A DNA stretch of 64,000 bases from Vermamoeba vermiformis. Taxonomy: Eukaryota. A program made the translations under genes and the position numbers. The notes under the pieces are model-generated. The model was not told the DNA's origin. It ran no database searches and saw only the letters and a program-made list of their open reading frames with translations. The stretch spans positions 1 through 64,000 of the forward strand of contig JBEWZL010000113.1 in assembly GCA_045837725.1 (NCBI GenBank), given 5' to 3'. The stretch's first letter is position 1; each line of letters starts with the position of its first letter. Positions 14,901-50,503 of this stretch are shown in pieces.

Positions 14901-15076
14901 ATGAATTTAATAAACGATACTACCAACGCCCGACAACCGATATCAGATTTTGTGCCATTAATTTACTAAAGCTGTCAAAGGTATAAATTTCAAATGTTAA
15001 CGAAGGTTAAAAACAGATTCAATACTCATTTTATTTACTTTCTACTGTAGAACAACACAATATTTGCATCAAAAAT

Positions 15077-25561: not shown

Positions 25562-28527
25562 ATGAATCAACTCGTTCTACTCGTGCTGCTGTTTGCCATT
25601 GGGAGCAACCTGGAGATTAATAGTGTCTGTAAGTACTATTGTAAATATGCAATATTGCAATAATATACCGATGGCAACGGTTAATATTTTGCCGAAGACG
25701 TTGACCAAATTATTAATTTAAATTGCTTTACAAACAAAACTCAAACTTGATTTCGCTTATTGCTTCGTGCTCTATAATTACAAACTACAATTAATTTATT
25801 GAATGCTTTGTCAATAATTTTGGTGACACTTTCCATCCAGATTCGCTGCCGACCTATTATTCAGATACTGGACTGACGGCAAACTTGGTACTGGATGTTT
25901 CCCTAGATCGGTTTCAAGTTCGCGTCGTTCCTACAAAGAACGATAGTACTAAATTCGCTGTATGCTTGGCCTACGGAACAACGCTTAATGTCGTATACGT
26001 CTCCAAATATGAGTACTCTACTCTCAACAAAAGCTTTACGTTTGTTTACAACGTTTCTTTGGGCGGAGTTAATACCTTTCAAGGGTGGTCTTTCCCCGAT
26101 CGAGGATCAGAAGATTGTGCCTCGATAGCTCTCATAACTGAGGTGAATATTATGAAAAGTACGCTGCCATTTAGCACGATCTAACATCGATTATTTAGCA
26201 AAATGAGCTTATCATAGGTCCCAATTTTTATTCTCTGAATCCACTGGGAGACGGACCTGAGCTGCTGGTGGGTCCTACGAGAGTAAACTCATCGACCGAA
26301 GAAATGATGATAGTCATGGCCAATAGCGTAAGCATATCACAAGCACAACCCATTGTTACTAATACTCTGTGGTAGTCAATGATTCGAAACCTCGATTATT
26401 CACTTTTGCAAAGTGCGGGAGCAGGTTTGAAGGATAGTTCCCTTAGTGTCTGCAATTATGGTAAGTTGTTGCATTTGTTTAAAGCTATGCTAATTCCTTA
26501 TCCGTTAGGGCCGAGTTCATTTTTTGTCGCGCTCGGAATTACTGCCGGAGGTTTGCCTCAGCAGGCACAAGTTTTCAACCAAAACTTGGGCAAACCTTGG
26601 ATTATAGGGAACACAACTTATCCCGCAAGAACTCCGTCGGTCGCTGGGTGGCCAGCTAGTGGCAAATTCATGATCTGCTATGACAATGGCGGAAACGTAA
26701 CCACGGCAAAGGTAAACAATTTTAAGTTATTTTCTTTAAAATACGAAAATTTTAACTAATATTGTTATCCAGATTTTCTGCCGTGCATCAGCGAGTGACA
26801 AGGAGACTATTATTGATGACCAGGGTGCTAGCTCAGTATTCTCGAGAGTTACCGTTAGCCCGGTGCTCGAGACACACGCAATCGTCAGTGCTTTAGCGAC
26901 GGATACTAGCCCTCATTTTAGGCTTTATGCTGTCGATAGCAACACTGGCACATTAGTCCCTGACTCAACGTGGGTCGGTGATTCAGCTGATGCAGTCACT
27001 CATGACTCGCACTCGGGCGTTATTGCCGTGGGTGTCCTATATCAGACCCAGTTAACTATTCGCATTCTACAGTTCAATGTACGTACGAGAATACTGTTCT
27101 TTTAAGCTAGCGTACTAACAAAAGCGACTTAAAGCCTCCCAGCACACCAGTGAGCTCTACAGGTCCTCCAAGCACATCTGGCGGGCCACCTCCTGCCGAT
27201 TCACCTTTAAGCACACCAAGTGACCCGTCTTCACAAGGAGTCCCACAAAGCGTACAAATCGGCGTCGGAGTTTCAGTGTCGGTGGCAGGCGCCGCTGCGG
27301 GATTGTTGCTGTTACTGCTATTGTTGAAGAAGAGACGTGATAAAAAGAAGAAACAGGGCGACCAAGTGCCAATGACTAATGACGACGAAAGGACTTACGC
27401 TGGCATTCCTACAGGAAAGTATTCAAACTTCAACACGACGAATGAAAGTGTCACTACGGCTACAGAAGAGGACGGTATTGCTGTCCCGACGTCGATTAAA
27501 CCGTCGGAGATTGACCAACGAATGCACATTCCGTACAAGAGTCTCGTGTTCGTCAAAGAGATTGGTGCGGGAAGCTACGGCAAAGTCTATCTCGGGTACG
27601 TCGTTCAATGTCACGTGCCTTACGTGTTCTAACTGTAGAGTGTTTCAGTGAATGGAGAGGAGCGAAGGTTGCAATCAAAGTGAACAACACAGTGACTGAT
27701 GTCGATGGATTCCTCGCTGAAGCTAAACTCACACTGTAAGTAGAGTTAAACGTGGTGCTATTTTGGTTAATCTAATTGTTACCAGTGGCATCCCTCCTCA
27801 TCCGAACCTTGTGCAAACCTTTGGTGTGTCACTTGATGGACCCAATCCTTGCATTGTTCTCGAGTATTGTGGTGGTGGATCGCTTGATAATTTGTTCGGA
27901 TCTGAGAACTTATCGAATGAGAAGAGGCTTGACTACGCACTGAAGATTGGCTACGGCTTGCTTCACCTCCATTCACGCAATATCGTGCATCGTGACTTGG
28001 CAGCACGCAACATCTTGCTGACAAATGATGGTCAACCAAAGATCTCAGACTTTGGTATGTCTCGTATTGTTCAAGAAGAAGCTGCCAAAGGACGAACGAA
28101 AAACATGGTCGGTCCGCTCAGATGGATGTCTCCTGAAAACTTAAAGGACCGAACGTATAGTTTGAAGTCTGACGTTTGGAGCTTTGGCATTACCTGTAAG
28201 CCGTTAATTCCAGATCAGAGTCGGTACCGAAGATCTTACCTTTTGATTCAATAGTGTACGAAATTGTTGCCGGAAAAGAACCGCACGTTGACGAAGATCA
28301 GCTAGAGATAGCGCTGAAGATTAGAAATGAAGGTGCGACGCCCAAGATCCCCGAAGACTGCGATCCAGTTCTTCGCGAGTGCATGGAAATGTGTTGGAAG
28401 TTCAACCCGGAAGAGCGACCTGTAAGTACTTGAATGCAATTATATATTCCTTAAGATTAAGTATTAATATGTTGACTAGACAATGGAAGAGGTTTGTGCG
28501 TTCCTTCGATCTAAATCCTCCGCTTGA
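25562..28527 (+). CDS. Single-pass receptor tyrosine-kinase-like protein 1
   Basis: Signal peptide, beta-rich ectodomain, Pro/Ser stalk, TM (IGVGVSVSVAGAAAGLLLLLLLL) then KKRRDKKKK. Kinase motifs IGAGSYGKVY, VAIK, HRDLAARN, DFGMSR, GPLRWMSPE, SDVWSFG. Confidence 0.88.
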
Positions 28528-28770
28528 TCCATTTTTTTGAGCGCGGGTAACGATAACTTGGTTTGTATATATTATTGCACATGTGCAAAAGGTGCATGGA
28601 GCAAATTAAAATTAAATCGTAGTTGCCTAATTTGGATCCGAGCGACCTTTAATTTTCAGACAACGGTTCTTTTTACAATATTTTTACAATTATTCCAAGA
28701 TTTGAAGGAGCAATAAAGCTTTGCAATTATTTATTATTAAGGCCCAGGCTTAGAGCGGCTACCTTGAATA

Positions 28771-31700
28771 ATGGAGATGCGAGCAATGTACTGGTCTCTT
28801 CAACTCTTTCTGTTCGCGTGCCTTGCCTTGTGGGTTAATAGTATGTATAATTATAGCACAGTACTTTAATATGACAATAATAGGACAGTAATAGGATGAG
28901 ATTAAATAATAGTAGAAAATAACTCAACCGTTTTTTTTTTAAAAATGAATATTTTCGAAGCTTGTTTAATAATTACTCAGAGCTGCTATCATTGTGTAGC
29001 GGAAACTAGGGTTTTTTAGAATTCTAAAATTAACGGATTGCTTTACCAGGCACGAGTGCTCAAGCCCCACCCAATTACTTGCCACAGTTAACAATGATTC
29101 AAGCATCTACCGTTAATGCGTCACCAGATAAAATTCAAGTGCAGGTCGTACCGGTCAACAATGCCAACCGAGATTATGCGATCTGTGTTGGCTGGAGAGT
29201 CGGCACAACTATGACGCTGACGAAGCACATGTATTCTGCTCTCACGAATACTGTCTATAATTCGACTGATCTGTCCACTACGACCGCTATCAAGGACTTC
29301 TACATTATGAGCCCGGGTACATTGCAGTGCCAGGTTCTCTACCTCACCACGGTAAGAAACGAGGCGTTGCCACGAATGAATGCTAACTCTTATTACAGAC
29401 GAATTCACTGATATCTTGCTCAAATGCTGGTACCACCAGATGCAGCGCTGACTTGCCCTTGGAAAATAACCCAATCTATATCGGACAAGTTAACCAAGCA
29501 GCAGGAGTATCGGATGGTATTTTCTTTTATACGAATGGGGTAAGTATTCAATTTGAACACACAAAGACGATCAAATCTGATTATTTGATTGGCAGACTGA
29601 CGCATTTGGAGATGGTTATCAAGGAAAACTAGCCCCACCCGCTCTATATAGTTCCTTATCGGCGACTTTGTGGGGTAAGTTAGTTTTAGTTCAATCTTGT
29701 GGTTCTAATAGGCTCTTAGGGACATCTAACTACATCACCGCTCTTGAAAAGACTAACGGTGGGTACGTACCACCGGGAATTTACGAAAAGGCGGTGGGCA
29801 CGTGGACTCAACAGTCCGTCGCGCAAGTTGCTAGAGCGCCTTCAGTTGCCGGGTGGTCTGGTTCCTCACCTCAATGGGTCGTCTGTTTTGACACAGGCGC
29901 TAACGACCCCGCTGACTCTTATGTAAGACACACAGTATGTGCTAAATTTGAACTAATAACTTTCGTAATAGATCTATTGCAAAGCAAAAGGTCAACTTGA
30001 GAATACAATTGACGATGGCGCAGGGGCAGGTGCCTTCTTTGAGCAATCAATGGTCAGTGCCGTTCACGACGATTATGGCATCGTGTCAACTGTCGCCTGG
30101 TCGCAGTCCACGCCAAAGATGAGAATGTACGTTATCAATCGTGCAGATGGATCTTTAGTCCCAGGGACTGTGTGGTTGGATAACAGAGTTGCAAATCGAG
30201 TGGCGCACCATTCTGCCAATGGTCTTGTCGCAATAGTGCAGTTTAGTTCTTCGGCGAGTGACCTGCGCCTTTATGCACATGATTTTAAGGTAAGCAATTT
30301 CACGGGCGAGACACGTAGACTAACTAGTTGCTCAGCCTACGTTTTTACCCCAAGGTCCAGTTACAACGGACCCGGTGGCGCCTGTTGCTTCCCCCTCTCT
30401 AACACCTCAAGCAAGCAACTCTCCGTCATTAAGACCATCGGCACCGCTTGCTGCAACAACACCCGGATCTCCTCTATCACCCAAACCAAACCAGACACCA
30501 CTAACTGCTCCCAATAGTGAGTTAGCACCCGATGGTTCTGTTATCGGGACTCCAGGTACGCCTGATTCTGGCTCGGCGGGTTTGACTCAAGGAGCAAAGA
30601 TCGGTGTTGGTGTTGCGGTCAGTGCAGTTGGCGCAGGTGCAGGATTGTTCGTACTTCTCTTCTTGCTCAAGAAAAAGCGTGACAAGAAGAAGCAAATGAG
30701 CGACGAAACACCAATGGCTCCAGTCGATGGCTCAAAAGAACCTGGCTCTGACAACACTTACGGAAACCTGCCTGGAATGGACAATGGCAAGTACTCGAAC
30801 ATCAATCTGACCAGCAACAGCAAGTATGGCAACGTCTCGGTCACTGGTAGTGATGATGGTATTGCAGTACCAACATCGATTCAGCCATCAGAGATCGACA
30901 AGAGAATGCACATTCCTTACAAGAGTCTCGTGTTCGTCAAAGAGATCGGTGCGGGAAGCTACGGCAAAGTCTACCTTGGGTAAGCATCAGACTCATTAGT
31001 TGTGACGAGCGAGATACTTCGTTCGATGTCCCGTGTCTTACGTGTCCTAACGATCGAATATTTCAGTGAATGGAGAGGAGCGAAGGTCGCAATCAAAGTG
31101 AACAACACAGTGACTGATGTCGATGGATTCCTCGCTGAAGCTAAATTGACTCTGTAAGTCCATACGAGCAACGATTCCTATCAATTAATTACTCACCCGC
31201 TTAATTACAGTGGCATTACACCTCATCCGAACCTTGTGCAAACATTTGGTGTGTCACTTGATGGACCCAATCCTTGCATTGTTCTCGAGTATTGTGGTGG
31301 TGGATCACTCGATCAACTGTTCGGTGGCGACAAAGGACTGACCAATGAGAAGAGACTTGAGTACGCACTGAAGATTGGTTATGGTTTATTGCATCTCCAC
31401 TCACGCAATATCGTGCATCGAGACTTGGCAGCACGCAACATCTTGCTGACAAACGATGGTCAACCAAAGATTTCAGACTTTGGTATGTCTCGAATTGTTC
31501 AAGAAGAAGCCGCCAAAGGACGAACGAAAACGAACTTTGGACCAATCAGATGGATGGCACCTGAATGCTTGAAAGACAAATCGTACAGTTTGAAGTCCGA
31601 TGTTTGGAGCTTCGCCATGATTTGTAAGCGATGAGCGTTAATGGTGTCGCTCTAAATCCGAACTAACGTTGTCCCAGTGTACGAACTTGTTGCAGGCAAA

Positions 31701-31953
31701 GAGCCTCATGAAGACGCAGATCAACTTGAGATTGCACTGAAGATTCGAGACAAAGGAGAGACACCAAAGATCCCAGAAGACTGCGATCCAGTTCTTCGAG
31801 AATGCATGGAGATGTGTTGGAAGTTCAGTCCTAATGATCGACCCGTAAGTACCACGTTAATACTATAAATATTAATATGTAATTAATAACATTACCATTT
31901 AGACAATGGAAGATGTTTGCGACTTCCTCAGATCGAAGTCGCCGGATTCTTAA
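28771..31953 (+). CDS. Single-pass receptor tyrosine-kinase-like protein 2
   Basis: Same exon layout. Signal MEMRAMYWSLQLFLFACLALW, TM IGVGVAVSAVGAGAGLFVLLFLL, HRDLAARN, GPIRWMAPE. Confidence 0.88.
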
Positions 31954-32235
31954 GTAAGAAAATTTCTTCTCCTTATCTGGAAATTACTTTGTAAAATAAT
32001 AATTAGAAATTAATTCTATCTTATCACGTGCGTAATCATTGAAAATAGTTGTCGTCCGTTAATCACAATCTCCCGGAAGAGATTTTCTAAATTTGGGTTG
32101 TTCAACGAACTAGTCGTTTCAAAACATTAATTTTATTCAATTTACGTTTCTTTATTTCAATTTGTTAACCCCGCAACAACATTTCTCGACGAAACGTTGT
32201 GGTCAAGAAGTCGCTGTGTGGTTTTCATAGGCTCA

Positions 32236-35210
32236 ATGGATCGACTTCGTTATGTCGTTCTCTTTCTGGTTTGCTTGGCTTTGATAATTTCCGGAGAAAT
32301 ACGTAAGTGTTTAGTGCAGTGAAATCGGCAAAATTAGGAGATTGCCAAGCATGTTTAAATTTATATAAAAATGGATTAATTTACTTTTGTCATAGAGGAC
32401 TCCCCAAGCCCTTACGTACTGCTAAGAACTGCGCCGAAGATTATTTTGGATGCACAATTTACGGTCATGAACAAAATGGTCGTTAAAGTGGTTCCTACTG
32501 GAGCGTTCAAAAACCAAGACTTTATCATTTGTCTAGGATATGAATATCTTACATCTTCTTCTGCAAGTTTAATTGGCCTAAAGAAGTATTTCTATTCCAG
32601 CCTCAACGGATCGATGTCGCTACCGCAGGATATTCCCGTTACAATTAACTCCTTCAGAGATTTCGCTTTTCTCGATAAAGGCGATGATTCGTGTTCCACT
32701 GGCATTCTCGAAGAAGTAAGTAACTAATAAAACTTTCAAGTATTAAAAGTTGCGGGCAGATCAGCTCCAATTGGAAAGTTGGCTCGGCAGACACATTTTC
32801 CAACGTAGCCATGGACAGAAATCCAATACGAGCCGCTATCACGAAGCCAGATTACAGCGGAACGGCAATATTATCATTCTTTTGCAATACTGTAAGTTCG
32901 CATGCTATTTGTTTTATAGAATTTTTTTGACTTACGCGGACAGACTGCTTGTTTCGACAACACCTACAACCCCATATCTCAAGCCTCTGGGAGCTCTATA
33001 TACAGCTCTATCAACGTAGCTAACATAGGTAAATGATTGCGGTACTGAGATTGGACAAAGTCATTAACATGCCATTTCACAGGTCAATCGTCGTACTTGG
33101 CAACGATGTCGTTTAATCCTTCAGCGGGTCTCAAACAAGGTCAGGTTAGTATGTTCAGCAATGGTGTTTGGAGTGTTTCTTCTACGAGTAATACCGCCCG
33201 TGAAATTTCCGTTACTTCCTGGGACGACAATGATTTCATGTTCTGCTACGACAACGGAATCCTTCAGCTAATAGATTCACCGACAGTACGTCCGTTGAAT
33301 ATACACTTGATTTGTATTAACTTTGAGTAAGATTTACTGCCGATCCAAAAATTCTGGAAGCGACATCATTATCGACGAAGGAAGGCCTAACGCTGCTAAC
33401 GCCACGTTCAGCCAAGTTAACGTTAGTCCTGTTAACCCCAACTATGCCTTCGTTTCTGCATTGGCGACCAATGGCGTTGGCTCCCACTACAGACTCTACT
33501 CTGTTACCAAAGGTTCAGATGCCGCTCTTGACCCGCGAACGCTTTTGATAGGCACCTCCGCAGTGCGAGTTGCGTCGCATTCCAAAGGCAATATTATTGC
33601 TGTGGCTGTCTGTTACGCGGCTGCTATTGACCTCACTCTCTATGGGTTTGATGTACGTTACGTCTTAACTATTGTTGACGTTCTAACGCTTCTTTTAGAT
33701 GAGCGTTTTCAACCCACCTGTAGCACCTCCTGTTGCCACTCCAATCACTCCACCGCAGGCAGCACCGGTCACCACCGCCCCACAAGCAACTCCGAACACA
33801 AATTCTCCAGTTGCACCGCCTGGTTCTTCCCCCATAGGCACTCCTACAGCCACAGTAGTCGACCCCCCAGTTGCTGACTCGGGTTTGACTCAAGGAGCAA
33901 AGATCGGTGTTGGTGTTGCGGTCAGTGCAGTTGGTGCAGGTGCAGGACTGTTCGTTCTTCTCTTCTTGCTCAAGAAGAAGCGTGACAAGAAGAAGCAAAA
34001 GAGTGACGAAACACCAATGGATCCAGTCGATGGCTCAAAAGAACCAGGTTCTGACAACACTTATGGAAACTTGCCAGGAATGGACAATGGCAAGTACTCG
34101 AACATCAACCTGACTGGCAACAGCAAATATGGCAACGTCTCAGTCGCTGGTAGTGATGATGGTATTGCAGTACCAACATCGATTCAGCCATCAGAGATCG
34201 ACAAGAGAATGCACATTCCTTACAAGAGTCTCGTGTTTGTCAAAGAGATTGGTGCGGGAAGCTACGGCAAAGTCTATCTCGGGTAAGTCGTTCAACGTCA
34301 CGTGCCTTACGTATTCTAACGATCGAATATTTCAGTGAATGGAGAGGAGCGAAGGTTGCAATCAAAGTGAACAACACAGTGACTGATGTCGATGGATTCC
34401 TCGCTGAAGCTAAATTGACTCTGTAAGTTCATAAGCAACGGTTCCTATCAATTAATAGCTCACCCGCTTAATTACAGTGGTATCACACCTCATCCGAACC
34501 TTGTCCAAACCTTTGGTGTGTCACTTGACGGACCCAATCCTTGCATTGTTCTCGAGTATTGCGGCGGCGGCTCGCTCGATCAGCTATTCAGTGGCGATAA
34601 AGGACTGACCAACGAGAAGAGACTTGAGTACGCACTGAAGATTGGTTACGGCTTGCTTCATCTCCACTCACGTAGTATCGTGCATCGTGACTTGGCAGCA
34701 CGCAACATCTTGTTGACAAACGATGGTCAACCAAAGATTTCAGACTTTGGTATGTCTCGAATTGTTCAAGAAGAAGCCGCTAAAGGACGAACCAAAACGA
34801 ACTTTGGACCAATCAGATGGATGGCACCTGAGTGCTTGAAAGACAAGTCGTACAGTTTGAAGTCCGACGTTTGGAGCTTTGGTATTATTTGTACGTGATT
34901 ATCGTTGTCCCGCTACAAACCCGAACTAACATTGTTCTAGTGTACGAGCTTGTTGCAGGCAAAGAGCCTCATGAAGACGCAGATCAACTTGAGATTGCGT
35001 TGAAGATTCGAGACAAAGGAGAGACACCAAAGATTCCTGAAGACTGCGATCCAGTTCTTCGCGAGTGCATGGAAATGTGTTGGAAGTTCAGCCCTAATGA
35101 TCGTCCCGTAAGTATTATATACAAAAATTATATTACATACTAACTAACACCAACGATAGTCAATGGAAGATGTTTGCGCTTTCCTTCGATCCAAGTCGCC
35201 GGATTCTTAA
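32236..35210 (+). CDS. Single-pass receptor tyrosine-kinase-like protein 3
   Basis: Same exon layout. Signal MDRLRYVVLFLVCLALIISG; TM and kinase almost identical to copy 2. Confidence 0.88.
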
Positions 35211-35411: not shown

Positions 35412-36818
<1,407 letters not shown>

Positions 36819-36947
36819 TGAACAGTTTAACACTTGTTGATGGAAGTTTTATCTATTGTAGCCTTGCTGCTCTGGAAGTAAAATTAAAGTCTTTTGAAGT
36901 TTCAGTTCCCTTTCTTTCAGCTCTGCGCCAACACAAAAGCCACGAAG

Positions 36948-39900
36948 ATGTTGCTTCGTGTACTTTGTAAATCATCCAAGATAATCGCTCGCCCTAGGGG
37001 CTCGAGCTTGACACGCCTGGCAAGAGGCGTTCCATCTCTCGAGAATCCGACTGCATCTCAACGTATTCAAGGCAAGTAATTATCGCGTATTGAAAATTTT
37101 TATTAATATATTACCGTGTTAGTGCCTACCCTTTGGTAAGTTTCTGGGTAATTGGAATGAACTCACTCGCATCGGGATTCTGACGTGACCTGATCCAGAT
37201 CATCTGACTGACTTTAGGGGTCTAAACTCGCCCAAAAATAGTGGTGTTTTCTCGCCCTACAATAGAGGTATTTTTACTACTCGCGCTCCTACATCAGGTT
37301 CGACTTTGCCGAATCAAGAATCAACTTCTTACCAGAGTAAGAGAGGTGCGTCTCTAAGAGAATGAAATTATAATAATACTAAGCGGCGAATTAATTATTG
37401 TTAGTTGCTGAATGGACTCGTGCTGACGTCGCTCAGTGGGCAAGCGATTACAATTTGCTTTGTAACAACGATGGCCGGTCTAAATTACATAATTATGATA
37501 TTACTGGCGAAGTATTAAGCACCTTTAACGAGAGTGCAATCAAGAGCAGCGGTTTAAGCACTGAGGAGGCTAGGCAAATATTTGCAGTAGCTGCTCGATA
37601 CATGCTAGCAACTAACGAGTGCAGCACCGCAATTATCATGAATAATGTGCAAGCGACTTTGGCAAGAATCAAGAACGTTCTTGAAAATGGCAAAAATCTC
37701 AAGTATCAGCAGGAGAACATTTCACCGCTTGCTGTGGATTGCTTACCGTTAGCAAACGATGGTCTTTATTGGGACACGGATTATTTTGAGGATATACGAG
37801 GCACGACGTTTTATGAAGAGTTCAAGGAACAAATTCAAGGGTCTGTTGCTTCCGTGCAGAATGCCAAGTTGCACCACTTGATTCAAAGTAAGTTCACAAC
37901 ACAAATAGTGCTATTTTTGACAGTTTTGAAGTGAGTGGCACTGGAAAAAGTCATGCAATGAAGCAATACATCCGGCAGCATGGTGGTGTATTCATTAGTT
38001 TCATACGTGAAACACATGGACAATTTCTGCGTGAAACTGAAGAAGCCATATCAAAAGTTATTAATGATACTCCCTACCTTCAATCAAGACAAGTAGGAAC
38101 ATTCAAGCAAGAGCAAAAATTCACAGAATTTGCAAAGATGGCAGTGGAGTCAATTCCATTATCATTTGTTGAATATGCAAAGTATTTTTACAAACATGGT
38201 AAGTTGGTGTAAGTTGGATAATGACTGAAATAACACCTTTACAGCCCAAGAGATAGGAATGAATGATGAGGACCAAAAAGAAGCATTTCTTCGTGCATCT
38301 TTGGATGAAGGTCAACCAGCAATCTTTGCATTGCACAAAAGGAATTTGAAACTGTTGCAAGAAAACCCAACTCAATACAACAGTCTGCGCTCTGATATCA
38401 TCACCTATGCTAAACAGCAGAAGATGACCTTTGCCTTTGATGAAATTCACCAAATGTCGGAGACCTTTGTAGGTCAATTTCTACACAGTGCAACCATAGT
38501 TAAAGGTGGAGTGCAAGTGTTTCAATCGACTGACAAAAAAGAGGTTACTGAAACTGAATGGCAAACGTTTCTTGTAAGTGTCTTAGCTCTCACATCTATG
38601 ATCTAATTTATTCTTCAGCATGAGAGATTGCGAAGAGAACGCCAAAAAAAATATCAGCCTGCAATGCCTGGAGATTTTCAACGACCCACATCACTGTTGT
38701 ACATCTTAGTGTTGGTAATGGAGGACTTTGCAAAACAAACAATTCCAGTAAGTCTGTAGACTTGCAGAATCTCAGCACTAACAATTTGTATAGCAAATGA
38801 CTGCATCAACAGTATATTCTTCAACCTTGTATAGCTTTAAAGGCGAGCTATATTCACGTGACAGACTGCCCATTATTCCAATTATAGTGCCGCAGATTGA
38901 TAATACTGTAGCAAGATTTCTCAATATTATCAAGCATGCATTTGGTCAAAAAGCAGAAGAATATCTACAAAAGAACCACCAACAAACTTTGCAAGATCTT
39001 TCATCTCACTCAAAGTTCCTTTTTGATATTTTTAGAGTTGAGCTCACTTGAACTCTCAACAAATACTAATATTAGTAGGAAAATCTATCATCCAAAACTA
39101 AGATTGAAGAATTGCTAGATGCCATGATGATCAGAGGGCAATTTACTGCCAAAAATTTCAGTACAAAATATTTAGAGGCTGCATTACAGCGTGATGAGTT
39201 GAAAAAGGTTTGCATTTAATTGTAACTTTATTGTATTAATTGGTCCTCAGGTGATGGCAAACACTGTTCTTCAAGTGAACCTTGGAGGTCATTTAGCAGA
39301 GCTTAGCCCTATAGAGGTAGAAGGGCTTGTCAGTTCTGGTGTTCTTCGGTTGCCAGAAGGATACAAATCAGGTTCAAGGTTTGGTGTAATTGCATCACAT
39401 TACGATGTTTATATGCACCAAGCTATGCATCAATATCCTTTACAAGAACTCATTCAAGTAAGAAGCAAAGGTACTGTATTTGTTCTTGACTAACAAAAGT
39501 TGCAGCTTGTACCTGCTCTTATTTGTGAAAATGCTCCAAACGACACTGGGCAGCTTGGCAAATATGCATGCTCCCTCCTGTTGAAACAGCATGCTCAAAC
39601 ATTTGCACCAGCTTCACTTTTATCGCTAGTGACAGAATTGAACTTAGCAAGTACTGCCAAAGATTTTGTTTTGTCACCAGCACTACATTGCAAGAGATGG
39701 CAAGATATCCCTGGAACTTGGACCATGTTTGAAGACTACCATGGGTACAAAGATGTTCTACTTCGACCTAGCCCAGCTGCAGGACCAGATGCAATATGTG
39801 TGCTCCTTAAATTTGGCACACAAGAGCCTGGTGGCTTTTTGCTACTTCAATCCAAGAACCATGCCCAATCACTGAACGAGAATGACTTACCTGCTGCTCT

Positions 39901-40338
39901 GAAGTCTGTCGATCCTAATCAAATGTTTAGAGGTGCAAAAAACCAACGACCACAGTTTGTTGCAGCTGTTAAAAAATTGCCTGCTACATTTGCATGGTTG
40001 CGAGTAAGTTAAATGAGAACTTAGCTCATGAACTTTCAATGCTAATCATAATGTAGGTTATTTATGCCAAAGCTTTTACAAAACAGGCATGGGAGGATAT
40101 TTGCAACTACAATACCACAGAACATGGCAAGAAGTTTCCAATCATCCTTCTGACTGCCCACAACCTTCCTACACTTCTTCAAACAACGGACATATTTGCA
40201 CCTATAAATTCACGAGGTACCCCAGACAGGCAAACAGCAGAAGGCCTTGACTCACCTGCTGGTATTCCGCCCAAAAGCCTTACAAAAAGAGAAATTGCTT
40301 CACTAACCCGAACCTATGGGCTAAAGCTTAAATTCTAA
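36948..40338 (+). CDS. Crinkler/RHS-type effector-like protein: basic presequence, SAM-like domain, P-loop NTPase, PD-(D/E)xK nuclease
   Basis: SAM-like EWTRADVAQWA...DITGEVLSTF...IKSSGLS. Walker A-like VSGTGKS, Walker B MTFAFDEIHQ. REase-like RPSPAAGPDAICVL...FLLLQSKNH. About ten exons joined in frame. Confidence 0.7.
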
Positions 40339-40435
40339 TCCAAACATTTATTTTACAGTTGTTTTGAACTCAATATGAAACAGTAATAAATAATCGACGT
40401 TTTACAGCACGTATTACTGCACTGCTTGACCTTAT

Positions 40436-43400
40436 TTATCCAACGATGTTGCTGAAGGCGCTGCAGGTTTTTTGGCTCCAGGCCTCGGTGGAAGTTTCGG
40501 TCCGTTCAGCTGACCAACCGACGGATTTCTCAACATTGGAGGCTGTTTGTGTTGGCCCGGAGAGCCCGGAGAGCCCGGAGTTCGGTGACGCACCACCGCT
40601 CACCGCCATTGGTCGCTTTTTAGCTGGCGCAGCCAATCCCTTTGCGTTAGGACCGGGAGCCACGGGCTTTTCCAACGCGTGTCGCGTGCCAGCTGCAGCA
40701 GGGCGAGCAAGAACAGGAGCTATAAATAGACATTAATAATCACGTGTGATAAGAATAAGCGGCTAGATTACACGTACCACCATTCTCGCGAGGTGATGAA
40801 GGTGTCGCAAGGTTCACGTCGTGTCTGTGCGACTCTGGCGCTGAAATTCGTTTGTTGTAAGGAGGGGCTGATTGCGGGCCACTGCTCGGTCCGTCACGTG
40901 GTGAAGACGCCTTCGATGAGTCCGGTGAACCATTAGTGCTGTTGTTCGGTGAATTCTTCGTGCCACTGAGGTTCAGTTGTTGAGGCTTGATAGCGTCGCT
41001 CAACCGAGGTGCAGGGGTAGGACTTGAATTAGGCCCCGCGACAATTTGATTGGCATTGAGCTTAGGATCACTCGGACGTCTCGGGGCAGGAGTCGGTGAC
41101 GTTGGTGTCGAGCCATTGGGACTCGTAATCTGATTGTCGTTCAACTCGCCGCTACTTGGCTGCTTTCGCAACGTGCCACTATTAACAGCGTTGCCTTTAG
41201 AAGGGTCACTGGGCCTTCGCGGAGCTGGCACGGGCGCTGCATTCGCGTTAGGACTATTGGCTTGATTGGCGTTCATTTCCGCAACGCTCGGCTGTCTTCT
41301 CAAAGCACCACCAGACGTGCCTCGTGGCGTTGTTGGCGGCGTCGGTCTCGTCATTGGCGTTGGTGAGCCTTCGTCATGAGTGTTCGCGCTTGTTACTTGA
41401 CTGGACACATCAGCAACGCTCGGCTGTTTCCGCAAAGTGCCACCAGAAGTGCCGCGAGGTGTCGTCGGTGGCGTGGGTCTCGTCATGGGCGAGGACTCAC
41501 GGTCGTCCTTGTTCACTTGACTCGTGTTCAGCGCTGGGTCACTAGGCTTCTTCGTGACTTGGCCCGTGTTCAATGAGGGGTCACTGGCCTTCTTAGTGAT
41601 CTGGCCCTCGTTCAGAGCAGGATCGCTCGGTTTCTTCGTGATACTCGGCGAGGTCTGTTCTTCCGTAGGGTGATTTGGCGACAAGGGCGGTGATTTAATG
41701 TTAGGTTTTGAGGCATTTCTAACTATTGTCGGCGGGGCAGTAACGCTATTAGCGGCATTTCTAGGGGACTCTTGGGTCGGGCTGGCGCTATTATTGGTGT
41801 TGTTGTTATTGCTACTATTGTACAAAGCGGGGTTTGGCGCTAATGAAGGGCTCGGCATGCGTCTATCTGGAACGCCTGTTGAGCGGCTATTTGGACTTGT
41901 CGGCCTTAATGTTTCATATGGTCGTTTTATTCCTACAATTTTGAATCAATATTGGAGCATTATTAAGCTGAAAACATTTTCCGAAGAAATCTTTCGGAGA
42001 AAATTAAGATTTTGGATTAGAGACCATGCCGCAATAACTTACCTGCTTTCATATTCTCGCGTTGCACGAATTTATGTAGATCAGCTGGATTAACCATAAC
42101 AGAAGCTCTCAGCGACAATTTTTCAAATAGAAGTCCGGCTTCGTTGTCTTCTTCTTTTACCGGCGGTTTTAACGTGACACTCATAGCGCCACTTGTAGTA
42201 TTTGTTTGGTTCTTGCCTTCAGCGGATGACTCTGAGACTGATTCCTCACTAGACCAAAAAAGTTAGACAGATCCGTATCAATTAATATCCTTAAAATATT
42301 TTCGGGCTGTCGCTCGTAAAAAAGTGTTATTGTTATCGCTTATGGTTATTTTTATATAAAGAATCGACTTACTTGATTGACGGAGGTCGATCTGATTTAT
42401 CTTTGTCTTTCTTGTCCTTATCCTTGTCTTTATGAGTTCCTGATGTCCTCTTCTTAGAGCCCTTATGACTACCTGATTTTCTTGAATTCTTCGGCGAGGA
42501 ATTATTGGAATTGGAATTATTGGCTGGAACATTTGGCGACGCGGGTCCTGGAGAATTCAGCGGTGTACCTGATTCGCTAGCTGAATCAGATTTCAAAAGT
42601 TCAATAGGTATTCTACTATCTTCTCTTTGTATATTATCCATCCTTTCATCTGCAACGAAATATTAGATCCAAGATCAAGATGCGAATCCGCAGAAAAATT
42701 TGCTCGAACGGTATGCTAATGACGATAATATGATTATACGTACTCATCTTATTATTATAATCTGCAATTGTTTCCACTAACGAGACAATCCAACTGGCCT
42801 TTTCTTCGAGACTTTTTGATTGAAAATACAACATTTTTCGTTGCGGGCTAATGCACAGCTGGAAAAAATGTCCGTTGACTGTAATTGCATTATATTAAGG
42901 ATAATAATGCATAAAATAATATTAAGATAATTTTTAAAATTAATTGGCAGGTGTCAAGATCGTTTTGAGAATGGTCGAAAAAACGGATCTGGTCCTTCAA
43001 CCAATTAACGTAAACCAATATCGTTAAATAAGGATACGATCATCGCTCTCGGGTATATCGAGCACTGATACTGCATGAAGACTAGCGACAATTTTGACTT
43101 TCAATTTTTTGGATCCAAGTTTGAACGCACTCGCGAATGAATTGCCTTGCTGTGCAAACACCAAGATATCGTTGAACAAAAAGAATGTGATCTGTAATAG
43201 TGCTTGGTAAGTACATGAACTATATACCATTGCGAGTTCTTACCTCTTTTTTACGGTGTTTTTCTATTCGTGTAAAACTGGCCTCTCGAATAAATTTTCG
43301 GTGCGGAGCCACCAAATTCTACGATAAAGTAAGCATAATTAGCCTTATATTTCGCATATATATGCACATATATGATAATATTATCGTATTAACATACGTC

Positions 43401-44946
43401 AGGAGGGTTACTCAATCGATTTTCAATTGCCACGATTTTGTTCATTCGTTCGTGTTCTTCAATGTCTTTATTAACTTCATCAGCAACCTAAATATATTAT
43501 TAATATCGTATGATAAGCTATTAATATAGTAAAGATAGCGTGGCAAATGGTGCACGTACTTCAACAATTGCTTGCAAAGCCTCTTTGATATTTCCATAGT
43601 CCATATTTGTAGAAGGCGTTTGTTTGATTAATTCTTCTAATAATAAGCGATATCGCGGAATCCTAATATTTTAACGATTAATTAATGATAAATATAGCTA
43701 TATTTTTTTTGTTTGGATCCTTTGCAAGCTAAAATTGTCTAAAAAAATAAATCATGATGAAATTACAGTGCAATTTTGCAATCATAATACAAGGATCAAA
43801 TAGATGCACAATGAATAAAAAATAAACGACATGACGCATGACGTTCGCAACTTTGTTGAATTGTTACCTTTGTACTGGCATAATTAGTAAATCTCTTAAT
43901 TGCATGTGTTCTTTATGCTTGGTTCGTTGGGTCTAAAATAGCCGTTAGTCATAGATACGAAAAAGATTCGTTAAAATGATGTAATAGCAATTTCTAGATC
44001 TAGATCAGGAATTAATTGCTAAAAAAATATCGAATGTATTCATATAGAGCACATCCTCGAGTTTGGATCGTAATTTCTTCTCCTAACTGAAATTGAATCC
44101 AGATCCAAAAAAAAATGAAATTTTTGACAACCGTGAGTTACTCTTATTATTCCTACCTCCATAAAGTTTTTAAAGTCCTTATGCTTGGCCTGTAGCTTCA
44201 ATAATAAAGCTTGACTATGATCATAATTGCGAAGATACTCTGCATACATTTTGAAATACGGAGTCTGCATAAAATTAGGTTAATTTACCGCGGCTAATTT
44301 TGACGATCGAATGAACATTCGAAATTTAAAATTTCCGATCTAAATTTACATTTCAAATTCAAATTTTATCGGATCCAAAAAAAAACCTATTATGGAAAGC
44401 AATGTAGAAGAGAGCGAATTCCAAAATTATTGGCAAGCTCTACTGCGAGCTTGCCTTTGCTAAAGTATAGTAAATACATACCATCTTCACAAAAATATCG
44501 CCCAGTTGAAAGGATGCACGTTTATTGTTCATCCGTGTCCTAAGTTGAGCTGAGAGTTCATAATTGAATTGATAGATAATCTCCACGTTTGCAAATAGTA
44601 CTTTGATGTCATCTGCGCTTAATACTTGTTCAGGCGTTCCAACGAGGGCTCGGATTGGCAATATAAAGATCTGATCAAAAATTAATAACTGTAGGTGTCA
44701 AAAAAATCCTATAATAGTGCAGCACGATAATACACTCCAAATAGCCATCATAGGCGGTTGAAACAAAATTCTAGGATGAATTCTCGTTGTTGCGTGTAAA
44801 AGTGCCATAAAATTGAGATTGGCAGTGATTAACCATTTACATGATGATTGAATTATTACCTTCACCAATCGCTCTAAAAAATTAACATAACTCTGCTCTG
44901 TTTTGACAATTTCTTCAAGCACTTCAAACCGTCTTGAAAAATCCAT
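40436..44946 (-). CDS. RhoGEF (DH-PH) with long Pro/Ser-rich repetitive C-terminus
   Basis: DH motifs EEIVKTEQSYVNFL, LFANVEII, YAEYLRNYD, LLIMPVQRIPRYRLLLEELIK; PH motifs FFLFNDILVFA, EEKASWI; low-complexity tail. Confidence 0.88.
41060..41640 (-). repeat. Intragenic coding repeats in the RhoGEF tail
   Basis: KK(P/A)SDP(A/S)LN x3; PMTRPTPPTTPRGTSGG(T/A)LR(K/R)QPSVA x2; PAPRRPSDP x2. Confidence 0.75.
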
Positions 44947-45400
44947 AGTTGGATGTCGATATCTACACAAAGAGATAAATATCGACCAGTAGGCCTGTAT
45001 ACGTTGAGTATAGGGCCTTGTTAATTATATGATGTGTTGTTGCTTCAACTGGGTTGTGCACAAAAAAATCTTGAAGCGCGAAATTATGAAGTCCATGCCA
45101 AACTGCTTGTCAAATTCATCAATCAGTTTCGGTCTGAAAAAACAATTAGCGCAATATCATAGTTAATATACCCCTTAAATTACAACAAATCCCAGCGAAA
45201 TCGAACATTGCCTACATCTCAGAAAAATTGAGGAACTAATTTGAATTGCAGAGAATGCACGCGTTGCGATAAGCGTACATTGGCGATGTATAATGCTAAT
45301 GTCAACTATTAAAATTCTTTTTTCTAACGGTCTAAGTCTTTTGCTCGCGTCTTTTTGTTTTTTATTCAATTTCTCTAGTGAGCGCAACAACAACGCAAAA

Positions 45401-47328
45401 ATGTCCTCAGACGACGAATATGATATGATGTACGACTCTGAAGGAGACGCTGATATTGGCGGCTCTGACAACGGATCTGAACAGAGTGGAAGTGAGGATG
45501 AAGATCCTGAGGTTGAAGTTGAAAACAAATACTTCGAAGCCAAGGGTTAGTATTTGTGGATAAATAATTATAGTGCACGTAGTAACGACGCGTTATTATT
45601 TTAGAATTGGCTGAGGAGGACCCTAGAGAAGGTTTGACCGCCTTTGAGGAAGTTTTAGATTTAGCTTCAAAATTGAAGAAAAAAGATGATGAAGAGAAAA
45701 ACTGGTTAGTATTAATTTTTAGAATTATATTTGTATCGATTCACCGATATTCTAATTTTATTAGCAACTTTATTGTCGAATGCTAATAATTTTTGGTATT
45801 GCAGGGGATTTAAGGCCTTGAAGAGAATTATTAAGCTCAATCACCAACTCAAAAAGCATGATAAAGTTAAGGAAAAATATCAACGCATGTTGAAGGACTT
45901 TAGCGCTGTTTTGGTCTCTCAAGAAAAAGCCCTTAACAATTTATTGGATGCTATTGCAGAATCACCCCACATTAAAGATTTATATGATTTGACACTCGAG
46001 TCATTCGAAAAGAACGGAAATAAGGTAAATTTATTTAAAATAAGATTGTCTGTCAATTTAAATTATTTTTCAAATCTATGGTCTTTATTGCTTAACCAAC
46101 AATTTTTTCGCATTTATGCAAACGACAATTATTAACGACATATTTTCATATTTTTAGAAAGCATGCTTGCGTTTGGAGCTTCGTCTCACCAAGGTCTTGG
46201 CTCAAAAGAAGGATTTCGTTACTCTCGAAAAGGTACGTTCAAAATTCTTTTAATCAAACCAGCTTATTAACCTCTATATATAAAGAAATTGCGCAAAATG
46301 CACGCTGAATGCCAACTTCCTGACGGCCGCGACGATCCCAGCAAAGGCAATCAGCTGATGGAGATCTATGCTATGGAAATCTCTATGCACTCTGCTCGTG
46401 CTAACTACAGAAAATTAAAGGAGCTCTATGAAAAGGCTCTTCAAATCAAGGGTCTCTGTAACCCCAAGATCTCGGGTATCATCCACGAATGCGGTGGCAA
46501 GATGCACATGCGGTAAGTTCCAAGCGCTTTTTATACTACAGAAACAATAATTCAAAAGTATTTTGCGCTGTTTTATTATGTAGAAGCGATTCTAATGATT
46601 TATTCAATTTAGTGAGCGTAACTGGGTTAACGCCAACACTGATTTCTTCGAGGCTTTCAAGAACTACGACGACGCTGGTGCTCGCTCTGACAGCGTCAAG
46701 TGCTTGAAGTAAGTAGTAGCCGGCAATGTGATTATAAGGGTACCTTTGTCTAACCTATCAATTAATTAGGTACTTAGTATTGGCTAACATGTTGAGCGGA
46801 TCCAAGATCAATCCTTTCGACGAACAACGAGCCAAGTCGTACCAAAACAATAAGGACATTCGCGCTATGATTGACCTCATCGACGCCTACCAACGACACG
46901 TGATCAAGGCCTTCGAGAAGGTGTTGAAGGAGAACAAGGAAGCTATTTTGGGTGACGAGTTCATTGCGGACTACATCCAAGATCTGATGAAATCTTTGCG
47001 CTCTGAAGTGTTGTTGGAGCTTATCCAGCCTTACACCAACATCAGCTTGCCGTTCATTTCCAAGGAGTTGAATATTACGCCTAAGGAAGTCGAGGACTTG
47101 TTGGTCGAGTTGATTCTTGACAACAAGATCCGCGGTCACATTGATCAAGTCAACCAAATGCTCTTGTTGTCTGCTACTAAGTACGTATTCACAGTGCCTA
47201 GTACTATCAATATATATATTAATCTACGGTCTCGTAGGTCTTCTTCGTACTGGAAATACAGATCGATCCAGAAGTGGACCGACAACTTGACGTCATTGGA
47301 GAAGACTATTTTGGGTCGCGTCAACTAA
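45401..47328 (+). CDS. CSN2: COP9 signalosome subunit 2 (PCI domain)
   Basis: VENKYFEAK, WGFKALK, GNQLMEIYAMEI, GIIHECGGKMH, DFFEAFKNYDDAG, CLKYLVLANML, INPFD, GHIDQVNQML. Confidence 0.9.
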
Positions 47329-48155: not shown

Positions 48156-50503
48156 CAATTTGACTCGAATAAATTGCATTCATGCAAAATCACTTCTGAC
48201 ACTGGCAGAGAGCGGCAGAACGAGATTATTGTTCGAAATTGAGACAAGTCGTTTCCATAATATTTTTGTAAATTTTAATGGCTAACACAAGTTTGGTACA
48301 CTTTCAATATTAAAATTAAATAAAGCCGCAGTTCACGTTTGGCTTCTGTTATAAACGGTGCCCCAGCAACCTTTCTTCGGCAACAAAACAGGCAGATGTT
48401 TTGCATAGCCTGCAGGTTGGGTTATTCTACGACAATTAGTTATGTCAGATCTACGGTTTTTTCATGCACCTACTTTAATTCGATACCCATAGACGACATC
48501 GGGCTTAATATCAGCGTTCCATTAGGTCTTCAAACAATACATCGCAGAATGAAGGCCTAATCGCAAGAATCAAAGTAAGTACCAGAAACAAATCCAAGCA
48601 GAAAAACCTACTTATTCAACTTCTCTGTAACGTTCTTTGGCTCAGGGATGGCCTGACCTTTTTGTAATCGTTTTTAAAATCGGTCTCCTTCTTCTTAGTT
48701 ACCGAGGGACGATTTGTTGTTTTTTTCGATGGTTAGCTCAATTGCCTTAAAAGCGTTGTAGAGCTGCAGAAAATTAATAGGTGCTCCAATTTAGCAAAAA
48801 ATAATTTTACCGCATCGATATCTTCGGTGGTAGAAGTGTACTGAAGCAGATCTACTGCTTCTCTCTTGATCGAAAGTTTTATTAGTTAACTTGCGTAAAG
48901 TTAAATATTGCTTACATGTAGTGACTATCAGGAGGTTCATCAAGAGCCACTGGGCTTGAGCGGTGTAATCTTTTCCAGCACATGCCACAAAAGTTGCCAG
49001 GATAATGAGTACTATCCGGGATTGCAGCGACTTCCAAAATTAAATGCATAGAATTCCTGTTAAATACGTTAGATTTTCTGATAACTCTGATCCAGTTGCT
49101 TACCCAAAATTGACAAAATTGAATGACAATGCTGCCATGAACATGAAGAAAGGTGCTTCATTTTCTCTCTTTTGGTCGCTAGAGTTGTTTTTGAGCAACT
49201 GTAGAGAAGTAGAATGTTTGCCTTACTTTTAGTCCAATTATTGTGGTCCCTGGGAGGCCAAGGTGTCGATCAACTTTCCTGTAGACCGAGGTTTAGTCTT
49301 CTTAATGAAGTAGACTCGGTCTGTTAGTTGATGGTATCCCGAGATGAAACCTATGACTAATTTAGTACGGAACAATTGACCAACTTATCGAGAGACAACC
49401 ACTTACGTTGATTACTTTCTTTGAACTTGCATCGATTTCATACAAGACCTGCGATGGATTCAGGTCGTTGTGGATTTGAATGGGATTTCGTCCTAGAACC
49501 GAGCGGGGCAACTGGGCGAACAGGCATAGCATTGGCTTAACCCCAGAAACAATCATTTGCTGAGCTTTAGCAAGTGGACTCAAGCTATCATAATATTATG
49601 CGATGCCTTTTAGCAGTGGTTAGCGGAGAAATAGAACAACATCTGACTTCGACACGAGTGACGGATTGAGTTTGAACGCGCGACCTCAGTGGATTTAATT
49701 GAAAAGAGGACAAATAGAATTTAAAAGAGGGTAAGGCGCCTCGAAACGATTTGATGGACGGAAGTCAGGCAAAGAGCTCGAGAGATTTGGCGGATGTCGA
49801 AAATCGAAGAAGACAATAAAAGATTTGCTCGAATCAATCGGTAAGCCGGTATATGGTCAATTTCAATGAACGAGAAGTAATTTGTAATGCCTAAAAGCAG
49901 GCCGACGAGCAGATTTGACAAAAAGAAAAATCGAAATTTGGCTTACTTTAATTTTTAAAATTGAAAAAACCGTAAAACTTGTATGTGTAGCAGTATTAAA
50001 ATGTACTAATATTGTTTAAGTAATATTTAAAAACATACCAAGCGAGACTTGCGTCCGGATCTCCAGCTCGATCTTCGTTACAACGGAGCCAGGCGGAGAA
50101 GAAGCCTTACTGTCGAAGAATATGTAGATGCATGCACAAAGCAGTCGTTATTGAAGCTTGTCGATGAGTTGTGGTGTTGCGCTGATGTAACGAAGAGAAT
50201 AAAAAATCTCCAAACTCGGTTTGTTTTTCTGTTACAAAACGAACATCACTTTGTTTGTAGCTAAAAATGGCGATTTTAAGTCTTTACGCGATGATATTTG
50301 GCCTTTACGCGACTTCAGGAGCTAAGCCGAAGTGCTCTCTGAGCGTAATCGGTGCCACGGAGTTGAAACTGAAGCGATATTCAAATCTGAAGCCCATTAA
50401 AAGTCTAACAAACAATAAGAAATCGCGATTATTACTAAATTAACTTTATGTACAATCAATATTTATAAATGCAAAAATAGGAAGCAAAAGACCGACTTCC
50501 TTG

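Follow-up and report, generated by a model that had tools for sequence, protein, structure and literature searches.

A sharply bounded CpG-poor block in an intact gene of Vermamoeba vermiformis, probably the footprint of local cytosine methylation

How can one part of a single gene lose most of its CpG dinucleotides when the DNA on either side has kept them? This question is raised by a stretch of 64,000 nt from Vermamoeba vermiformis (assembly GCA_045837725.1, contig JBEWZL010000113.1, positions 1 to 64,000 of the forward strand), which was analysed as a whole and is called the window here. Its plus strand carries, downstream of about position 36948, a gene for a header followed by a putative nucleoside triphosphatase (NTPase) and nuclease module, and it is the module part (37860–40338, referred to as the island) that is poor in CpG. 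An earlier note on this DNA had interpreted the island as the signature of past deamination of 5-methylcytosine (5mC) in a CR-type effector gene, the module having been either methylated as selfish or foreign DNA or recombined from a methylated transposon- or virus-like source behind a host-type header, and had suggested that methylation may be targeted at toxin-like modules. We followed up this interpretation computationally.

Dinucleotide counts were set against their expected values as observed/expected ratios (o/e), in sliding windows as well as in a maximum-likelihood scan for a segment with a second CpG rate. All statistics concern one locus within one 64-kb window, and the reference open reading frames (ORFs) and host introns used for comparison are predictions. 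The window has an overall GC content of 41% and a CpG o/e of 1.11. In the island only 28 CG were found in 2479 nt at a GC content of 0.39, corresponding to a CpG o/e of 0.296, that is 0.30 as compared with about 1.14 in the remaining window. The TG+CA content behaves in the opposite way, with an o/e of 1.43 within the island versus 1.07 elsewhere in the window. When the window is divided into 64 bins of 1 kb, the two island bins have values of 0.37 and 0.22, and the remaining 62 are all at or above 0.79. Comparison windows of the same length that do not touch the island (2479 nt, n = 566) gave a mean CpG o/e of 1.15 with a standard deviation of 0.12 and a minimum of 0.85, which places the island at z = –7.0. 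With 400-nt windows the median is 0.28 and the maximum 0.53 inside the island (n = 41), as compared with a median of 1.15, a 5th percentile of 0.80 and a minimum of 0.43 outside (n = 1213). Of the 15 longest gaps without CG in the window, 9 lie within the island, among them the five longest of all.

As a coding reference we used the 20 stop-to-stop ORFs of at least 190 amino acids found elsewhere in the window. Their CpG o/e ranges from 0.61 to 1.28 at GC contents of 0.38–0.54, so that none of the 20 in this 64-kb window falls below 0.61; the exons of the island have 0.33 and thus lie outside the range of other coding exons. Consequently, the island reported in the earlier note is real, and the scan of CpG o/e together with TpG and CpA over the whole window showed a strong and unique depletion with a matching excess. 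The hand counts that had led to its detection were exact, with 1 CG in 38041–38340 (38292), 2 in 38881–39300 (38891, 39190) and 5 in 37381–37440 (37384, 37387, 37419, 37427, 37430). The CG-rich neighbouring exon mentioned there does belong to a RhoGEF gene; it is located at 40740–41945 on the minus strand with an o/e of 1.15, and Pfam RhoGEF matches were obtained on exons at 44040–45024. Minor dips in CpG, neither of them longer than 500 nt, were seen at 48851–49350 and 33701–34100 (400-nt minima of 0.43 and 0.54); both are much weaker and shorter than the island.

The limits of the depletion are sharp. CG positions are closely spaced as far as 37853, sparse between 37973 and 40309 and closely spaced again from 40395 onwards, so that the last and the first dense CG delimit a CpG-poor segment of 37854–40394, without reference to strand. 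The maximum-likelihood segment of the two-rate scan is 37808–40394 with a log-likelihood gain of 53. The true borders are situated within 37854–37972 on the left and within 40269–40394 on the right, and those proposed earlier were correct to within about 60 nt. The CpG o/e is 1.10 over 36948–37853; at the left border it drops from 1.04 in 37654–37853 to 0.23 in 37854–38457. These first 604 nt contain 5 CG, all of them in arginine CGN codons, and not a single silent CpG, where about 27 would be expected at the density of the reference ORFs. On the right side the o/e is back at 0.99 in 40395–40719. The left border coincides with the strand preceding Walker A and lies about 35 nt upstream of intron 1, and the right border coincides with the stop codon plus at most 57 nt. 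At neither border could a repeat or a junction homology be found beyond short repeats at chance level. An 18-nt inverted match of 78% identity (37808–37825 and 40364–40381, the left arm being coding) lies near both borders; with 23 comparable pairs in 3.2 kb, of which it is one, it is probably fortuitous.

The island consists of exons 2–9 of an intact gene on the plus strand and contains no internal stop codon. After splicing out eight introns a single open frame of 855 codons results, with its stop codon at 40336–40338. The introns are 44, 46, 45, 46, 42, 43, 48 and 53 nt long in this order. Five of the donors read GTAAGT and the other three GTAAGA, GTTGAG and GTTTGC; the acceptors are AG, usually preceded by a branch motif resembling CTAAC or CTAAT. 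The gene model was built by reading the DNA and checking the frame, and it is on this basis that we infer the junction of exons 1 and 2 and the 5' end of the gene. Several introns are supported by relatives. A contig of run X6, about 96% identical to the window, starts at 38244/38245, and the eight letters preceding this point match the end of exon 2 at seven of eight positions; as it begins with exon 3 directly after the letters of the exon 2 end, intron 2 has been removed from it. In the orthologue fragment P0002, translation runs on into intron 7 and shifts frame inside it, the preceding exon being in frame, which fits a non-coding stretch at this place. In four fragments (P0001, P0003, P0004, and P0007) exon 8 is followed by W-[LVI]-R-V-S, as results when a GTAAGT donor in the same place is translated instead of spliced; the position of intron 8 is therefore common to homologues at 46% identity. 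Two observations weigh against the model, namely another X6 contig (38868–39093) that is unspliced across intron 5, and the atypical acceptor (AAG) of the predicted intron 1.

The DNA itself is consistently assembled. Logan contigs of run X1 span every bin of the island, the listed pieces without differences, and no insertion or deletion was reported; the X1 depth is 416–737 in the island versus 318–983 in the flanks. From the agreement and the depth of these contigs it follows that the frame structure is no assembly error and that the segment is no high-copy repeat.

With the reading frame in hand it could be assessed which CpGs have disappeared. About 80 CG are missing from the island, and TG+CA are in excess by about 107. 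The 28 remaining CpGs are all exonic: 16 belong to arginine CGN codons (including six CGA codons, which are one step away from a stop codon), 7 to NCG codons, and 5 straddle two codons as NNC|G. Arginine is still encoded by CGN in 16 of 29 cases, a share of 0.55 versus 0.66 in the reference ORFs. At third codon positions the picture is very different. The share of C among C and T is 0.05 (5/104) before a G and 0.44 (99/226) before the other bases (Fisher p = 1.6e-14), as compared with 0.44 and 0.48 in the reference ORFs and 0.36 and 0.40 in the header exon. NCG makes up 7 of 167 NCN codons in the island versus 287 of 1298 in the reference ORFs, and the share of NCA is raised to 0.49 as against 0.29. 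The eight introns contain no CG at all in 367 nt, where 12.5 would be expected (Poisson P(0) = 3.6e-6), whereas in 24 short introns predicted for other genes there are 42 CG in 1229 nt, with just one of the 24 lacking CG. The GC content at third codon positions is lower in the island (0.32 vs 0.47), largely because of about 70 expected losses of silent CpGs.

Altogether, about 85% of the dispensable, silent-site CpGs have changed to TpG or CpA, and the loss is close to saturation. The combination of losses at silent sites and in introns with the retention of arginine CGN codons points to a gradual, CpG-specific C-to-T decay under purifying selection. The deamination signature that the earlier note had suspected is thus borne out: the loss is specific for CpG, is mirrored by a gain of TpG and CpA and is nearly complete at silent sites and in introns. 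The o/e lies below the background at equal GC content, TpG and CpA are reciprocally in excess, and the loss is strongest at unconstrained sites, as is typical of a methylation footprint. Decay of this kind is a known consequence of heritable cytosine methylation.

Apart from CpG, the island looks like the DNA around it. A heuristic intron search yielded 60 candidates, 54 of them outside the island gene, and 24 of these 54 have a length of 42–61 nt; the search recovered the RNA-supported 158-nt intron of the neighbouring GTPase gene and missed an RNA-supported intron of 58 nt. The introns of the island (42–53 nt) fall into the same size class as these 24 predicted short introns. Outside of CpG contexts the island and the reference ORFs show no difference in codon choice, either between C- and T-ending codons (p = 0.26) or between G- and A-ending codons (AAR, GAR, AGR, GGR; p = 0.31). 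When CG, TG, and CA are set aside, the mean distance of the island over the remaining 13 dinucleotides is 0.104, single reference ORFs having a mean of 0.116 and a range of 0.06–0.23. A search of IMG/VR gave no relative of the segment, and none was found among JGI metagenome contigs. No meaningful terminal repeats or target duplication were detected at the segment, a Pfam scan of the exons gave no transposase, transposon or viral domains, and there is no second copy or paralogue within the 64-kb window.

We consider it quite likely that methylation-driven decay of a native module produced the island, if decay at this locus and decay at an earlier locus of the same lineage are taken together. 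Our preference, held tentatively and with somewhat less than even confidence, is that long-term CpG methylation acted at this locus itself. Long-lasting, heritable CpG methylation and the deamination of 5mC to T would then have affected about 2.5 kb of a native, single-copy gene under selection. The methylated domain would extend over the gene body, beginning with the P-loop domain and ending just beyond the stop codon. On the left its spread would have been blocked by the header and by the active promoter region that the island gene and the divergent GTPase gene have in common, leaving the promoter-proximal 0.9 kb free, and on the right by the convergent RhoGEF gene with its 3' end. The island gene itself would be an orphan that is normally silent or expressed at a low level, with a header that is possibly SAM-like and a C-terminal nuclease-like module; methylation would have acted here and not at an earlier locus, and silencing would have accompanied it. 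Consistent with this, both flanking genes are supported by RNA, and runs X5 and X6, from relatives diverged by about 1–4%, carry pieces of both the header and the island. The header is also nearer to the island in CpG-independent dinucleotides than are 45 of 49 host chunks of equal size, which lends slight support to decay in place.

Several points weigh against decay in place. That 5mC was the cause is read from the footprint left in the sequence, the evidence comes from one locus, and the evidence for expression is thin and mixed, one X6 contig being spliced (intron 2) and another unspliced (intron 5). The borders are steps and not gradients. The step at the left implies that an epigenetic border stayed fixed within about 100 nt throughout the loss of about 85% of the silent CpGs, and a recombination junction explains such a step more simply. 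Both borders match the limits of the C-terminal module, which would be a coincidence if the decay took place in situ. Moreover, a methylated body behind an unmethylated 5' third is not among the patterns described for the repressive methylation of silent genes in the relevant sections of PMC8647823 and PMC12344493. We therefore considered as an alternative a swap within the lineage, by which the C-terminal module, along with its introns, its stop codon and some 55 nt of 3' flanking sequence, would have come from a methylated locus of the same or a close genome. The donor would have been a paralogue in a repeat-rich or silenced compartment, and recombination or gene conversion would have placed its module behind the unmethylated header. 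In this case the CpG deficit would be inherited, and the borders would be the junctions. This explanation is possible, if rather doubtful. It accounts for step borders on both sides without partial depletion in the adjoining 200–300 nt, and for a left border at the first P-loop strand and a right border at most 57 nt after the stop codon. A donor of the same lineage would be equally compatible with the host-like introns and codon use, and the junction between N- and C-terminus of CRN and CR proteins, as summarized in PMC5289972, is a recombination hot spot with many alternative C-termini. Yet no paralogue is present in the window, the nearest homologues among 1.8 billion representatives, apart from the near-identical P0001 and P0002, reach only 46–47% identity, and the sole candidate for a junction homology is the 18-nt inverted match mentioned above. 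The resemblance of the header to the island likewise speaks against a swap, and since X5 and X6 hold both parts, it could not have been very recent. A swap from a methylated copy of the same lineage, with borders at the P-loop start and the stop codon, is what is left of the chimeric gene proposed earlier, a foreign donor not being supported. One may also imagine a cassette system, which we regard as unlikely: C-terminal modules of the nuclease type would be stored as archive copies, silent and methylated, and recombined behind unmethylated, promoter-bearing headers, or, in a milder form, methylation would be directed at the toxic module alone. The CpG-poor block with its module-precise borders would be the scar of a switch in the former case; in the milder form, which we rate no higher, its borders would have been held within about 100 nt throughout the decay of CpG.

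Other explanations do without methylation of a native module. Introns, codon choice and the other dinucleotides are all host-like, so that a recent viral or foreign origin is not supported. For a module from a virus, a transposon or another CpG-poor genome speak the sharp compositional break and the orphan character of the protein (six credible relatives, all fragments, and no family match), and some protists commonly carry methylated genes with a viral ancestry, according to the sections on them in PMC12344493. It is nevertheless hard to reconcile with eight spliceosomal introns of host-typical length and signals, one of them in a position shared with distant homologues, with a spliced, intact frame under selection, with a read depth that equals that of the flanks and is single-copy-like, and with the lack of IMG/VR relatives, terminal repeats and transposase or viral domains; the same source also describes fungal islands of methylated genes without viral ancestry. 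We thus rate a foreign origin as highly unlikely, and the selfish, foreign or virus-like source of the earlier note is not supported. A decaying pseudogene or dead element had been suspected at first, as the region has no long ORF and at least seven frame pieces in three frames, and was rejected when the breaks turned out to be introns. Every break is a GT..AG intron of 42–53 nt with a motif resembling a branch site, 855 codons are open after splicing, the retained CGN codons reveal selection, and intron 2 is spliced in the RNA contig of a relative. Set against this, the lack of X21 RNA reads on the gene is weak evidence, the strain being 5–10% diverged, and we hardly credit decay of a dead gene at all. 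Finally, any CpG-specific process fits the raw depletion, be it selection against CpG in the transcript or a burst of mutation resembling repeat-induced point mutation (RIP) or editing. Selection on the coding sequence does not explain why the introns and the 3' flank are depleted too. Both RIP indices deviate in the direction opposite to RIP (TpA/ApT 0.74 vs 0.81 in the rest; (CpA+TpG)/(ApC+GpT) 1.56 vs 1.15 in the rest), and no duplicate copy was seen in the window or by read depth. A burst would hit arginine CGN and CGA codons equally and break the frame, whereas 16 CGN codons have been kept, in a frame that is intact. We consider a cause other than methylation very improbable. Decay of a native module by methylation, tentatively at this locus, remains the reading that we prefer.

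The gene in question can be described as follows. Its 5' part (36948–37404, plus strand) is CpG-normal and was delimited by ORFs, with Ser/Thr-rich open frames at 36888–37079 and 37189–37365 and a predicted 5' intron of 68 nt in phase 1 with 3 CG (37337–37404). An ATG near 36948 is possibly the start codon. Exon 1, the header (37405–37887), is an open frame that is CpG-normal up to 37853, with 21 CG in 37405–37853 and an o/e of 1.03. Intron 1 (37888–37931, 44 nt, GTAAGT..AAG) is predicted from sequence reading and the frame check; it is the sole splice carrying exon 1 in frame into the P-loop, and its acceptor AAG is atypical. In exon 2 (37932–38198) a Walker A-like motif, SGTGKS, is discernible by eye at 37934–37951. 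Intron 2 (38199–38244, 46 nt, GTAAGT..CAG), which rests on the frame check and the X6 contig, leads to exon 3 (38245–38573) with the Walker B-like motif FAFDE at 38430–38444, also recognized by eye. The frame check further defined intron 3 (38574–38618, 45 nt), exon 4 (38619–38747), intron 4 (38748–38793, 46 nt), exon 5 (38794–39036), intron 5 (39037–39078, 42 nt), exon 6 (39079–39207), intron 6 (39208–39250, 43 nt), exon 7 (39251–39457), and intron 7 (39458–39505, 48 nt). Exon 8 (39506–40003) contains the nuclease-like core, with GPD at 39782–39790 and QSK at 39848–39856 identified in an alignment of six sequences. It is followed by intron 8 (40004–40056, 53 nt), supported by the shared position in distant homologues, and by exon 9 (40057–40338, frame check) with the stop codon. 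All of these lie on the plus strand.

Very few proteins are related to this gene product. An exhaustive search of 1.84 billion representatives gave seven matches. Six are credible, all of them unnamed fragments, and the seventh is a spurious bacterial repeat protein. P0001 and P0002 are near-identical (95% and 86%) and were taken as fragments of the orthologue; the four further homologues, also fragments, have 28–49% identity. In the alignment of the six sequences (A1), P94, D95, Q115, and K117 of exon 8 are invariant. The resulting PD..QxK motif occurs in an alpha/beta pattern compatible with the core of a PD-(D/E)xK nuclease, with Q in place of D/E. The sole profile match was AAA_33 on exon 2 at E = 0.24; no exon or homologue had a match above noise in Pfam, NCBIfam, or PADLOC. 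A profile search of the PDB with exon 8 had 0 matches, and an AlphaFold model of exon 8 from the six-sequence alignment was unusable (predicted local distance difference test score, pLDDT, of 37.8). Neither the Crinkler/Ubl header nor any other Pfam family was found on exon 1 and the 5' frames upstream of 37405 at E-values up to 1 or 10, and word-based protein searches gave no relatives and no CR or CRN protein. As leads only, the best Atlas feature match of exon 1 is a SAM-domain cluster (score 0.79), and those of exon 8 are hypothetical proteins of Mucoromycota.

The module may thus combine a P-loop domain (SGTGKS, FAFDE) with a PD..QxK nuclease-like domain, a function suggested by short motifs. 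CR and CRN proteins consist of a header and a C-terminal module of NTPase, helix-turn-helix, and restriction endonuclease domains (Zhang et al. 2016, as cited in the part of Amaro et al. 2017 on their architecture, PMC5289972). The gene product resembles them in having an N-terminal header followed by C-terminal P-loop and PD..xK nuclease-like motifs. It differs in the lack of a Crinkler/Ubl header and of NTPase or restriction endonuclease profile matches, and in the invariant Q where the family has D/E. Of the label of an NTPase-nuclease effector of the CR type, the layout with header, P-loop and nuclease-like motifs holds up fairly well, whereas neither a CR header nor a CR or CRN relative could be found to go with it.

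The island gene lies between two genes on the minus strand. Divergently oriented is a small GTPase gene (Rab/Roc-like, 36100–36852), identified by RNA of run X21 and a Roc match with E = 7e-4, which is below the Pfam cut-off. It is expressed and spliced, as seen from the X21 joints 36156>36315 and 36361>36606, and has a short intergenic promoter region in common with the island gene. On the other side the 3' end of the RhoGEF gene (40194–41945) is convergent with the island gene; it was located by a spliced X6 contig and the RhoGEF Pfam matches upstream in this gene. It comprises the long Ser/Pro/Thr-rich exon (40740–41945), an intron of 58 nt (40720–40777) and a last exon or untranslated region that extends to at least 40194, and the spliced contig of 954 nt covers 40194–40719 and 40778–41204. 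The RhoGEF transcript overlaps the last exon of the island gene and is CpG-normal from 40395. The X6 contig is unstranded, and at the convergent overlap (40194–40436) it could be a merge of two transcripts. If the overlap is true, the convergent 3' ends could form double-stranded RNA in this region. The Ser/Pro/Thr-rich exon also contains an 82-nt direct repeat (41278–41491; 82% identical, 132 nt apart), which encodes a repeated low-complexity peptide.

The RNA and DNA runs come from strains of different distance. RNA run X21 has reads on the GTPase gene and none on 37000–40400; the strain is diverged, and nothing firm was drawn from this. Of the 71 reads, 48 are just 90–95% alike to the window (range 90–99%), with many fixed differences. 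X21 bears the same species label as the best-matching DNA run, so that this label spans quite diverged strains. At 40260–41343 variant contigs of DNA run X1 occur at about one third of the local depth (159.7 of 426.5 and 115.3 of 359.1), which suggests three haplotypes or a trisomic region.

Elsewhere in the window, three tandem units of about 3.3–3.4 kb at 27468–35114 (75–95% identical in blocks) carry tyrosine-kinase-like protein kinase genes; a Pfam kinase match (Pkinase/PK_Tyr_Ser-Thr) was obtained on 27727–28254. Two adjacent paralogous ORFs of about 395 amino acids at 13713–14900 and 15298–16482 (13700–16482 together) have about 72–74% DNA identity and no Pfam family. An exon at 45716–46135 has a weak match to the axonemal protein PACRG/ParcG (E = 0.005, below the Pfam cut-off), which hints that the organism builds flagella or cilia.

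A sharply bounded CpG-poor block in a genome that otherwise keeps its CpGs is a cheap marker of long-term local methylation that requires nothing but sequence. Here the block marks an intact gene under selection and not a dead repeat, and within this gene just the C-terminal module. If 5mC persists at the locus, it would be a case of stable methylation of part of a gene with borders on the scale of a nucleosome and would give access to the way in which such borders are established between neighbouring active genes. If the module was swapped in, the block would date and delimit domain shuffling in a family of nuclease-like orphan genes.

CpG depletion of methylated DNA is well known from vertebrates, and gene-body methylation with a bimodal CpG o/e from invertebrates. 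Gene-body methylation spares the 5' end of the gene, a point of similarity with the island gene, and affects a large share of genes, mostly broadly expressed housekeeping genes. The island shares with these systems the loss of CpG, the gain of TpG and CpA, the loss at silent sites and the retention under selection. Unlike in gene-body methylation, only 1 gene among about 25 in 64 kb is affected, and it is an orphan for which there are few signs of expression. RIP depends on duplicated DNA, acts preferentially on CpA, increases TpA and leaves reading frames broken. The likeness to RIP is limited to C-to-T changes in a sharply bounded segment, whereas no duplicate was seen in the window or by read depth, the changes fall on CpG, TpA is not raised, and the frame is intact. 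Repressive 5mC on silent protist genes was reportedly described by Sarre and co-workers in 2024.

Closer parallels come from fungi and protists. The sections on genes of the early-diverging fungus Rhizophagus irregularis in Dallaire et al. (2021, PMC8647823) describe a bimodal CpG methylation in which the highly methylated genes are mostly orphans and 0.4% of them are of the crinkler type. Islands of methylated genes occur in several fungi (Bewick et al. 2019, as cited in passages of PMC8647823 and PMC12344493), and repressive 5mC on silent, often virus-derived genes was described for several protists in the corresponding part of Sarre et al. (2025, PMC12344493). The literature search, with supplements outside its scope, gave no description of a gene of the crinkler or NTPase-nuclease type in which a CpG-poor block is confined to one part. 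As with the methylated genes of fungi, a minority of loci is affected in a CpG-replete background, and the gene is an orphan without known domains; it differs from them in that there is a footprint only, confined to part of the gene, with step borders in an exon, in a single-copy gene under purifying selection. With the repressive 5mC of protists the island has in common a local mark on particular, silent genes in an otherwise unmethylated gene space, which is also the thought behind the targeted methylation of the earlier note; those studies concern whole genes or multi-gene insertions, whereas here no viral ancestry was seen, and introns and codons are host-like. Local CpG methylation of a few loci is known; unusual here is a footprint that covers part of a gene, ends in steps and lies in a gene kept by selection.

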